From Longimicrobiales bacterium (GTDB taxonomy: Bacteria; Gemmatimonadota; Gemmatimonadetes; Longimicrobiales; Gaopeijiaceae), in the NCBI GenBank assembly GCA_965204735.1, contig OZ242008.1:1312001-1376000 (forward strand): DNA of 64,000 nucleotides, given 5' to 3'. Of the stretch, positions 18,360 to 50,256 are shown piece by piece. How positions within the stretch are numbered: the first letter of the stretch is position 1; each line of letters begins with the position of its first letter. A program made the translations under genes and the position numbers. The notes under the pieces were generated by a model, which did not search any database, was not told where the DNA came from, and worked only from the letters and a program-made list of their open reading frames with translations.

Positions 18360-18469
18360 CGCACGAGCCGCAAGAGCCTGGACCGGCCCACCTCCACGCC
18401 GGGTTCGAGCGGGCGGGAATGCGGCTCGACTCTCGCACGAGCCGCAAGAGCCTGGGCTGGCCCGCCTCC
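18360..18469. repeat. 36-bp direct repeat x2 with 38-bp spacer (74-bp period), intergenic
   Basis: 18360-18395 vs 18434-18469, 33/36 identical. Confidence 0.9.
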
Positions 18470-18533
18470 TGGGTGCCCGCCTCGCCGGGCGAACACTGCG
18501 GCCCACGTCTCGGCCGGGTGGGAGGGCGTGGTC

Positions 18534-19664
18534 TTACGGTGCGGCGATGGGCAGGGTGTGGGTGCCTGATGGCGGCCGGGGCGGCGGCCGTGGGCGTTCC
18601 ACCGCGGCCCCGCCCCGAAACCGGTACCCTGTCAGCTCTTTGCGCCAGCGCGGCAACCGCAGCCCCGACGGCCCGCCGAAGTTGGTGGGGCGCGACTTGA
18701 AGATCGGCGTGCGCATCCACCACTCCCGCACGTACCAGCTTTCCCCGCGCGTGCGGGCCAGCACGATCTCCCCGCCCTGTTGCTCCGCCGCTTGCCCCGC
18801 CGTCAAGTGGCGGAACTCCACCTTTGCGACCCTCGCCGCCGAGCGGCTGATCACGAACGCGCCCTCGATCCCGGCGCCGGTCATCTCCGGCGCCGAGCGG
18901 AAGAGGAGCAGGAGCGTGTCGGGTCCCTCCGCCTCCAGCGCGAAGCAGTGATTCGCCTGGAACCAGGGCGACACCAGCAGCCCGGGCGACGGGGCGAAGT
19001 ATCGAACCCGCCGGTCTCCAAGGTCTTCCGCCCATCCCGTGTCCTCCAGGGTGGCCGAGTCCACGAAGGCGAATGGAGCGCCCTCCCGCTTGACCGCCGT
19101 GTCTGCGACCACTTCCCGGAAGTTCAGCTCCGGGTCCATCTCGCCGCTGTAGGTCGCGACGTCGAAGACCGCATCGCCGTCTGCGGAGCCGAGGGTGGTT
19201 CTGGCGAGCGTCGCCCGCACCAATTCCCATGCGTCCCCAAGCGCGCCGCCCGTCGCCGCCGACGGGATCGAGCACACCGTTTCGGTGGAGACCGTCACTC
19301 CCGGCAGCTCGATCGGCTCGGCAAGCAGCCGCAGCTCCAACTCCCGACCAAGGTCCTCGACCGGCACCTCGTGGCGCCGAAACCCAATCCGCTCCACAAC
19401 GATGGCGTAGGGCGCCGGGCCGTCCACCATGAGCCGGAACTGTCCCGAACCGCCGCTCAGCCGACGGTCCCGCTCGACCCCCTCGCCGTCCAGCAGCGCG
19501 ACCATCGCCTCCGCCACCGGGTCGCCCGTCGCTGCGTCGAGGAGTCGTCCGCCGACGACCTGGCCCGTCAAGGGAACCGCCGACCCGATCAGCAAGGCCC
19601 CGGCCCAGACCGCCGGCCGCGCCGATGCGCGTCCGATCTTGGCGCCTAGTTGACGATCACGCAC
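18534..19664 (-). CDS. Exported protein with carboxypeptidase-regulatory-like N-terminal domain
   Basis: Signal-like AVWAGALLIGSAVPLTGQ, then GRLLDAATGDPVAEAMV...GQF...ERIGF; start codon uncertain (GTG 19664). Confidence 0.7.
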   Translation of the reverse strand: MRDRQLGAKIGRASARPAVWAGALLIGSAVPLTGQVVGGRLLDAATGDPVAEAMVALLDGEGVERDRRLSGGSGQFRLMVDGPAPYAIVVERIGFRRHEVPVEDLGRELELRLLAEPIELPGVTVSTETVCSIPSAATGGALGDAWELVRATLARTTLGSADGDAVFDVATYSGEMDPELNFREVVADTAVKREGAPFAFVDSATLEDTGWAEDLGDRRVRYFAPSPGLLVSPWFQANHCFALEAEGPDTLLLLFRSAPEMTGAGIEGAFVISRSAARVAKVEFRHLTAGQAAEQQGGEIVLARTRGESWYVREWWMRTPIFKSRPTNFGGPSGLRLPRWRKELTGYRFRGGAAVERPRPPPRPPSGTHTLPIAAP

Positions 19665-49600: not shown

Positions 49601-50152
49601 TACAGCTTCGCCAAGGCGTTGCGGCACTTGGTCGAAACCACTGCGCCCACCCGGATCGGGAGAGCGGCGCCGGGCGCCAGGGTCGCGAGCAGGAGTCGGG
49701 CGGCCGGCGGCTCGTTCGGCGCCCGCCGGTCCCTTCTGCTGTGGGGCGGCGTCCGCGACGGGCGCCCGGCGCTCGAGCCGCCCTTCGCGTGGGAGACCGG
49801 TCCCAAGCTGCCCGAACGGCCGGGACCGTACCGGATCGAAGGCTACGACTGGGCAGGGCGGCGCCTCTTCGCGCTGAACTTCGATCCGGTTCCCACCAGC
49901 CGAGGCGACAAGAGCTTCCTCTTCGCCGTTCCAGTCGAGCCCTCCTGGGAGCAGGCGCTGGCAGAGGTCGTCCTGACGGGACCCGAGGGCACGGCGCGGG
50001 TGGACGCGGCGGAGTCCCGGAGGCTGGCCGTCTTCGCCGATCCGGTCACGGGGCGCGTCCGCGGGATCGCCCGAGAGTGGCCGGGCGTCGCGCCGGCGGA
50101 CGGGGCCGTCGAGGGCCTGCGCGTCGTCCGCGGCTGGCCGGGGACGCCGTGA
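46652..50152 (+). CDS. Lipoprotein with Ig-like domains, about 10 leucine-rich repeats and an M66/metzincin-like zinc protease domain
   Basis: GTGA overlap; lipobox GLVAC; Big_2-like ISPSS..WSSD..V.SVDASG.VTA; 24-aa LRRs; HEIGHNLGLEH and DLMSYC. Confidence 0.85.
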   Translation: MIRFRVPSVRRVAPTARHGGRAFLRGVPAGLAVAGLVACDSGADPDPGVQEPPRAVSITISPSSVELSQVGETAVFRAALTDQYGAAFAGAVAWSSDAPQVFSVDASGVVTAIGAGTGTVRAAHEQLSATAGVAVTLRAAGLEVVSGGDQRGFESRPLAQPVVVRHARPGGSPVAGAAVRFQVLSGGGTVNSAVATTDGAGLASVQWVLGSAASLQTLVASVEGGPRVEVAAHSAGPHVCDRTREVARALAAATGRGECALVTADDLAQVLHLEMAGPWRPGAASSAPSLSALTRDDLAGMAGLAHLDLNGNRLTELPPGLADAAPALRLLDLSYNLLATLPAEGFAGLDGLEVLILGANPLSELPPRAFAGLGALATLDLGLARLTALPARAFDDLTALTDILLARNWLTALPEDAFRNLGRLRRVDLFGNRLAALPGNVFQGQALLEDLHLGGNSLSGLPAGLFDGLSALRLLDLSDNQIADVPAGAFHALASLQVLQLGGNLLDSLPQGTFRGVDGLRSLSLAPNPGAPFALTAELERTDHQNPLAPGPAQVRARMEMGAPFPIAVSLSSPGGVLSTASLSIPAGAVESAQATATNAPGSSFSVSARVSPVPATPCAGGAPCFTGLETVAGPRLVLANPAAATVTVPTVHLTQAVQDAEGSVPLVAGRRALLRVFVRSDSANAFQPDARALFYQGGAVVHASALRAPAGGIPTRVDEGRVDGSFNAVIPGSVLRPGVEMVVEIDPERTLPLAPASVRRVPGQGRAALDMRSVPALDLTIVPIQYAWGNNAGTNAKVLEFARALTEPDAAGLRFARALLPTPGLNATVRQPYFTWADTTELGGPGLLDEIELLRHLDAGSGDSYYHGVFAAPRIVREGGFWEFVGVAFLAGRSAITMTHGDDGAETAAVAQIIAHEIGHNLGLEHAPCGTPGGLDPNFPYDDGAIGAWGYDFGGAGRPERMASPVHSRDLMSYCLPQWVSDYSFAKALRHLVETTAPTRIGRAAPGARVASRSRAAGGSFGARRSLLLWGGVRDGRPALEPPFAWETGPKLPERPGPYRIEGYDWAGRRLFALNFDPVPTSRGDKSFLFAVPVEPSWEQALAEVVLTGPEGTARVDAAESRRLAVFADPVTGRVRGIAREWPGVAPADGAVEGLRVVRGWPGTP

Positions 50153-50256
50153 GGACGGGGGCGTCTCGGCGGCTGCGACCTGAAGCGTGGCGAAGTCGTC
50201 GTGCGCCAGGCAGGATGACGCCGTGAGGACGGGGGCGTCTCGGCGGCCGCGACCTG
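50143..50256. repeat. 40-bp direct repeat x2, 74-bp period, spanning the GTGA gene junction
   Basis: 50143-50182 vs 50217-50256, 39/40 identical. Confidence 0.92.

Follow-up and report, generated by a model that had tools for sequence, protein, structure and literature searches.

Probable scars of off-target spacer integration by two resident CRISPR integrases in the genome of a sponge-associated Longimicrobiales bacterium

Introduction

Off-target spacer integration, the closest described counterpart of the structures reported here, is a mechanism known from laboratory Escherichia coli. Over-expressed E. coli type I-E Cas1-Cas2 is reported to give rise to off-target integration and to neo-CRISPR arrays (Nivala, Shipman and Church 2018, as described in bioRxiv 10.1101/148544, PMC11788318, PMC7054753 and PMC6698737), while its occurrence in nature is described as unclear and the evidence for it, from two species, as circumstantial (bioRxiv 10.1101/148544). 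In addition, the off-target sites used in vitro by Pyrococcus furiosus Cas1-Cas2 are reported to share features of the repeat (PMC6698737), and HU is reported to suppress off-target integration by Thermotoga profunda Cas1-Cas2 in vitro (PMC13769266). For type I-G, a host factor is only suggested (PMC10504553).

The spaced repeats described below resemble the E. coli neo-CRISPR units, in which, as these sources describe them, Cas1-Cas2 puts a spacer outside the array and thereby creates a repeat-spacer-repeat unit from which a new array can grow. However, the E. coli case as described consists of rare events under over-expression in the laboratory, whereas about 130 fixed natural events, apparently from two integrases in one cell, are encountered here, along with a signature of selection and a strain polymorphism. 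The P. furiosus off-target sites, as reported, are repeat-like, as is the short class here, but they, like the T. profunda data, come from in vitro work on other CRISPR types; in T. profunda, again as reported, fidelity needs a host DNA-bending protein, whereas both DNABII proteins are present and ordinary in this bacterium. The units share their geometry with the bacterium's own I-E and I-G arrays (~28+33 and ~37+36 bp), but differ from them in having unique local repeats, mostly in two copies, with no leader and no enrichment of hairpins. Of what marks a functional array, neither a shared repeat family nor a leader nor any sign of crRNA was found among them. Based on genome comparison, it is proposed that the five units of one window and about 125 others are scars of off-target spacer integration by the bacterium's own two CRISPR integrases, a reading to which we assign a probability of about 0.88. 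No report of genome-wide natural scars of this kind appears among the entries listed in the literature searched, which covers few subscription papers.

Genome and catalogue of spaced repeats

The window is the whole 64-kb stretch of DNA that was analysed (Table 1). Its DNA is found in sponge and marine metagenomes of five studies, the nearest relatives of its acyl-CoA ligase are in Longimicrobiales (Gemmatimonadota) genomes, and the host bacterium is sponge-associated. All diagonals from 15 to 300 were scanned across the genome, and a second scan, from which arrays and short-period tandem DNA had been taken out, was confined to spaced repeats that stand isolated, with a score threshold of 18 for the repeat segment. 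Periods of 57-63 and 68-78 yielded 143 catalogue rows, from which five protein-repeat rows were removed to leave 138 units. Gene context was drawn from our own calls, comprising 2780 genes with approximate starts.

A sequence-only reading of the window had proposed a genome-wide process with a ruler of 72-74 bp. Genome-wide, two sharp period peaks are present, at 59-62 and 71-75 bp, with other periods from 40 to 130 nearly empty, and the 71-75-bp peak lies outside arrays and LRR genes. The long class is therefore real, although a second class, of 61 bp, had been missed; no member of it lies inside the window, where all five sites belong to the long class. Periods of 59-62 (short class) are found in 42 of the 138 units and periods of 70-77 (long class) in 87. 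Because the off-peak background is low (0-9 rows per period at a lower threshold, mostly multiples of 3), some 120-130 of the 138 units are considered true. They are scattered along the whole chromosome, with repeat copies that agree at 67-100% of positions over a segment of fixed length, and several consist of three copies and two inserts (e.g. C1:1622700, 3057375 and 3122381). As had been noted for the window, the repeats are local sequence, unrelated from one scar to another except inside the three-copy units. A generally duplication-prone genome was rejected, as the density of short tandem repeats (226 per Mb, against 103-438 in relatives) is unremarkable.

Scars of the window and their strain polymorphism

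Table 1. Coordinates of the window and of the repeat units and target sites within it (unit positions count from the first base of the window)
Feature	Coordinates	Strand	Description
Window	G000:C1:1312001-1376000		whole stretch in 4.14-Mb single-contig genome, 69% G+C
Scar 1	18360..18469	.	intergenic; copy 18360-18395 (36 bp), insert 18396-18433 (38 bp), copy 18434-18469; period 74; identity 33/36
Scar 2	22523..22631	+	in-frame, feoB; copy 22523-22559 (37 bp), 35-bp insert, copy 22595-22631; period 72; identity 31/37; +24 aa
Scar 3	40983..41097	-	in-frame, AMP-binding (acyl-CoA ligase-like) gene near C-terminus; 38/43 matched; repeat 41055; period 72
Scar 4	42066..42178	-	in-frame, variable linker of AMP-binding gene; 36/41; repeat 42138; period 72
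Scar 5	50143..50256	+	40-bp copy, 34-bp insert 50183-50216, copy 50217-50256; period 74; identity 39/40; young
Empty target	42791..42830	.	intergenic, single copy here
Proposed sixth site	53145..53232	.	rejected; best ungapped segment 14 bp, score 11.5

The coordinates, identities and periods of the five main sites were all reproduced exactly, while the weaker sixth site that had been proposed at 53145/53218, with its 14-bp segment, scored under the threshold. The 43 bp matched at scar 3 are probably about 37 bp with a chance extension. The gene context first given was confirmed as well: Pfam identifies FeoB (21817-24087) and an AMP-binding enzyme (40732-42684), scar 1 is intergenic, and the copy of scar 5 holds the stop codon of an LRR gene (46748-50152). 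The FeoB scar lies in a length-variable loop that exceeds its counterpart in G002 by 24 aa and that in G003 by 16 aa, and both ligase scars sit in linkers of variable length among orthologues. Hence, of the earlier idea of new protein loops, the lengthening of linkers by the FeoB and ligase inserts holds, but the linkers were already variable in length among orthologues.

Three further features of the window may be recorded. The gene at 46748-50152 and its neighbour at 50403-53138 both encode large LRR proteins, whose peptidase M66-like matches are weak (below or near the cut-off); proteins of this type are common in sponge symbionts. Within the empty target at 42791-42830 there is a short inverted repeat. 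A run of ~17 bases is common to the insert of scar 5 and the repeat of scar 4, which lie 8 kb apart, a likeness too short to mark a source and perhaps due to chance.

Contigs of four runs (X1, X3, X10 and X13), from four studies, were compared over 40200-54000 (13.8 kb). Strain length differences of 12-21 bp occur in tandem-repeat tracts at 42452, 42924 and 46636, and an X10 joint of 51049 to 51018 (period 72, depth 3), inside an LRR gene, was dropped as LRR unit variation. As to the scars, 40983 is spanned gap-free by independent short-read contigs of all four runs, and 42066 likewise by those of X1 and X10, so that these two are not assembly artefacts. A 9.8-kb contig of X10, from a conspecific wild strain and ~1.5% diverged, lacks precisely 74 bases at 50142-50217 and so presents the empty site of scar 5; the orthologous intergenic site of G003 is too diverged to align. 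Reciprocally, X10 duplicates 42791-42830 around 34 other letters, with period 74 and at depth 46, where the present genome has a single copy, and X10 contigs end and begin inside this site. A collapse artefact at 50143, where 31 letters fit both sides, was judged unlikely, because at 42791 X10 broke its contigs and kept a separate contig for the insert. This polymorphism, documented in one run (X10), one 13.8-kb stretch and the long class only, makes it likely that CRISPR adaptation remains mutagenic in wild populations.

Resident CRISPR systems of matching geometry

The genome carries cas1 and cas2 twice. The I-E locus, beside its array, comprises Cas3, Cse1, Cas7e, Cas2e and Cas1, the last called by Pfam and by 85% identity to the Cas1 of G001; the I-G locus, also beside its array, comprises two Cas7g, Cas4g/Cas1g and Cas2; and both loci are intact. 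In the I-E array a 28-bp repeat is joined to a 33-bp spacer, and 51 of the 54 intervals are 61 bp. In the I-G array a 37-bp repeat is joined to a ~36-bp spacer, with 35/36 intervals at 70-79 bp, mostly 72-78 and with a mode of 74. The earlier suggestion to compare the duplications with resident array sizes proved fruitful, as both period classes equal the geometry of the two arrays. In pairs whose copies are near-identical, duplications have a median length of 27 bp (short class) or 36 bp (long class), where the repeats measure 28 and 37 bp; the duplication thus has the length of the cognate repeat, and the insert that of the cognate spacer. The likely maker of the 70-77-bp class, to judge by this geometry, is the type I-G Cas4/Cas1-Cas2, whereas the type I-E Cas1-Cas2 likely made the 59-62-bp class.

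Some peculiarities of the two loci were also observed. The two Cas7g genes are separate (L098:1776-2732 and 7144-8394). At the leader end of the I-G array (L098:16100-16330), the first two units are malformed, the first having a 23-base spacer and the next repeat missing three bases and being followed by a ~5-base spacer, which may reflect imprecise integration or deletion; the core of the I-G leader is conserved. The I-E leader (L097:15920-15985) is very short, ~11 bp less than that of G001, with its A+T-rich part diverged, and is a candidate reason for poor on-target capture.

Target-site preference

The targets of the short class resemble the I-E repeat, matching 14.3 of its 28 positions where controls matched for GC and coding status reach 12.7 (p 2e-9), and show no likeness to the I-G repeat. 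At the 20 short-class sites with 27-29-bp duplications, C stands at the two positions where both arms of the I-E repeat have C in 62/80 cases, against a null mean of 31 and a maximum of 44 in 300 draws. Long-class targets resemble none of the repeats tested, neither that of I-E, nor that of I-G (16.0 of 37 positions in targets and controls alike, p 0.57), nor that of G002 (p 0.44), and they yield no de novo motif above the null; hairpins are not in excess in the targets. For I-G, a model in which the enzyme simply picks look-alikes of its repeat is thereby disfavoured, and the long class is assigned to I-G from its lengths.

Moreover, periods of the non-coding long class peak at 72 whereas the I-G array peaks at 74, which counts against the I-G assignment. 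An unlikely alternative, which keeps the mechanism but changes the enzyme, is that most of the long class stems from a different Cas1-Cas2 that has since disappeared or been replaced, whose repeat had 36 bp and whose period was 72-73 bp, the resident I-G integrase having contributed only a share. The peak at 72 belongs to the old non-coding long scars (15/43), the targets are unlike the resident repeat, and G002 does have a 36-bp-repeat array with periods of 72-73. However, the young non-coding long scars have periods of 72-75 with a mode of 74, as the resident array has, the new X10 scar likewise has a period of 74, and the G002 repeat is no closer to the targets. The excess at 72 can, in addition, stem from in-frame survival in gene ends missed by the gene caller.

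Origin of the inserts

Eleven of the 138 inserts have a counterpart far away in the chromosome that agrees with their central 28 bases at 25 positions or more; for flank controls the count is 0/138. These self matches end at the insert edges, a pattern found in 11/138 inserts against 4/1500 random and 21/1500 non-coding positions. Four of the 11 belong to the short class and seven to the long class; one has its match in a multi-copy gene family, and some are pieces from inside genes. A search for spacer sources, suggested by the sequence-only reading, was thus rewarded elsewhere in the chromosome, but for none of the five window inserts, which are among the 127/138 inserts for which no source was found, a point against the integrase reading. 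Plain BLAST gave distant matches for 13/143 inserts, 58/429 random segments, and 6/143 and 8/143 flank segments; these counts are uninformative because the genome has much multi-copy DNA, and the bounded-match test alone discriminated. Beside the 11 protospacers no shared motif that could be a PAM was seen by eye. The insert of scar 50143 had 0 matches to viral contigs, the I-E array had no match to phage records, and the inserts share no sequence with each other.

These features bear on a process other than CRISPR, namely capture of DNA by end-joining at staggered breaks or remnants of insertion sequences with long duplications, which we regard as very improbable. Ku, a component for end-joining, is encoded here, and the IS1202 family makes long target duplications. 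Nevertheless, end-joining has no ruler for two narrow size classes equal to those of two arrays, and Ku is found also in four relatives free of scars; insertion sequence remnants are at odds with inserts that are unrelated to each other and partly derived from inside genes; and neither process accounts for short-class targets that look like the I-E repeat. The double size match already largely refutes such a process. Finally, whole-unit tandem duplications of 24 codons with a decayed middle hardly merit belief, for although 72-bp LRR and other protein repeats exist here (5/143 catalogue rows, removed), the identity of insert to flank is at chance in 138/138 units (0.30 and 0.28 against 0.287 expected, with 0/138 at 0.5 or above), the peak periods 61, 73 and 74 cannot be divided by 3, some inserts are copies of distant loci, and strain X10 has an identical duplication around unrelated letters. 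Since the inserts are unrelated to their flanks, decayed duplication is rejected also at 40983, where it had been hinted at (insert-flank identity 0.31/0.17).

Selection on the scars

Scars avoid genes, wholly coding ones numbering 31/138 against 82% expected for random targets. The period is divisible by 3 in 30 of the 31 coding scars and in 46/107 elsewhere (p 1.6e-8). In the 44 scars at gene ends, the start or stop codon lies in the regenerating copy in 30, in the other copy in 1 and in the insert in 10, with 3 unassigned. The coding share of the long class is higher among old scars (23/66) than among young ones (2/21).

Relatives and lineage specificity

Of 31 genomes searched, 8 encode Cas1, and the three same-genus relatives are all among them. 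The Cas4g/Cas1g of G003 is 89% identical and the I-E Cas1 of G001 is 85% identical to those described here, and the repeats are nearly the same. Partial genomes of seven relatives were sampled (G003, 457 kb; G002, 360; G001, 320; G008, 200; G012, 200; G020, 165; G028, 180), in total 1.88 Mb, in which 17 raw non-array rows were obtained against ~63 expected. On inspection by eye, 15 of the 17 were put down to protein repeats (LRR or other), to tandem families or to variants of arrays, which leaves two plausible ones. That relatives with nearly the same integrases lack scars in the sampled stretches counts against the integrase reading.

Loss of a host factor was considered as the cause and rejected, as none of six families tested shows a loss specific to this genome: G000 (the present genome) to G003 and G008 all encode DNABII proteins (two each), MutS, RecA, UvrD and Ku, and the WYL pair is found in G000-G003. 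Both DNABII proteins are ordinary-looking beside those of the relatives. As a separate observation, Ku is present in all five of these genomes and in 1/14 control genomes. Because both integrases misfire, we infer a shared control, be it expression, a fidelity factor or weak purging. It is hypothesized that the restriction to this species likely results from unusually high or long-lasting integrase expression or from weak purging, and not from an altered enzyme.

A model of the process and its meaning

None of the three observations that the sequence-only reading had named against itself was made, and its proposal of Cas1-Cas2-like off-target integration is supported. In the process envisaged, the integrase would take a spacer-sized fragment, which in 8% of cases or more would come from the cell's own chromosome; the copy is observed, and capture by Cas1 would explain it. 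The two ends would then be joined to opposite strands of an ordinary site with a stagger of one repeat length, I-E favouring repeat-like sites, as the observed likeness suggests, and I-G presumably acting without detectable preference, to judge from the geometry. Gap filling, a repair step borrowed from the established mechanism, would double the target, and doubled stretches of ~28 or ~37 bp are what is observed. Selection would purge most genic hits, leaving those that are intergenic, that form in-frame linkers or that regenerate starts and stops, in line with the pattern observed, and a few sites would be hit twice, giving the three-copy mini-arrays seen. The process appears long-running, with copy identities of 67-100%, yet recent enough for strains to differ.

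While the mechanism has its precedent in laboratory E. coli, the window contributes two points, namely that strains differ reciprocally in their scars and that sister species, by contrast, are clean. The importance of off-target spacer integration in nature is called an open question (bioRxiv 10.1101/148544). The clean sister species, with Cas1 85-89% identical, point to control of fidelity or expression. With the sisters clean, we lean slightly towards the view that one change of control at the level of the host made both unrelated integrases a standing genome-wide insertion mutator, which would copy chromosome fragments, add 20-25 borrowed residues to proteins, duplicate gene starts and stops, seed arrays and segregate at many wild loci, and which would record the specificity of Cas1-Cas2 in nature and with it provide the first map of I-G off-target sites in vivo. 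With ~130 dated natural events, two integrases side by side and both empty and filled wild alleles, one could measure directly what adaptation costs in fitness, how new arrays arise and how the target rules of the I-E and I-G integrases compare.
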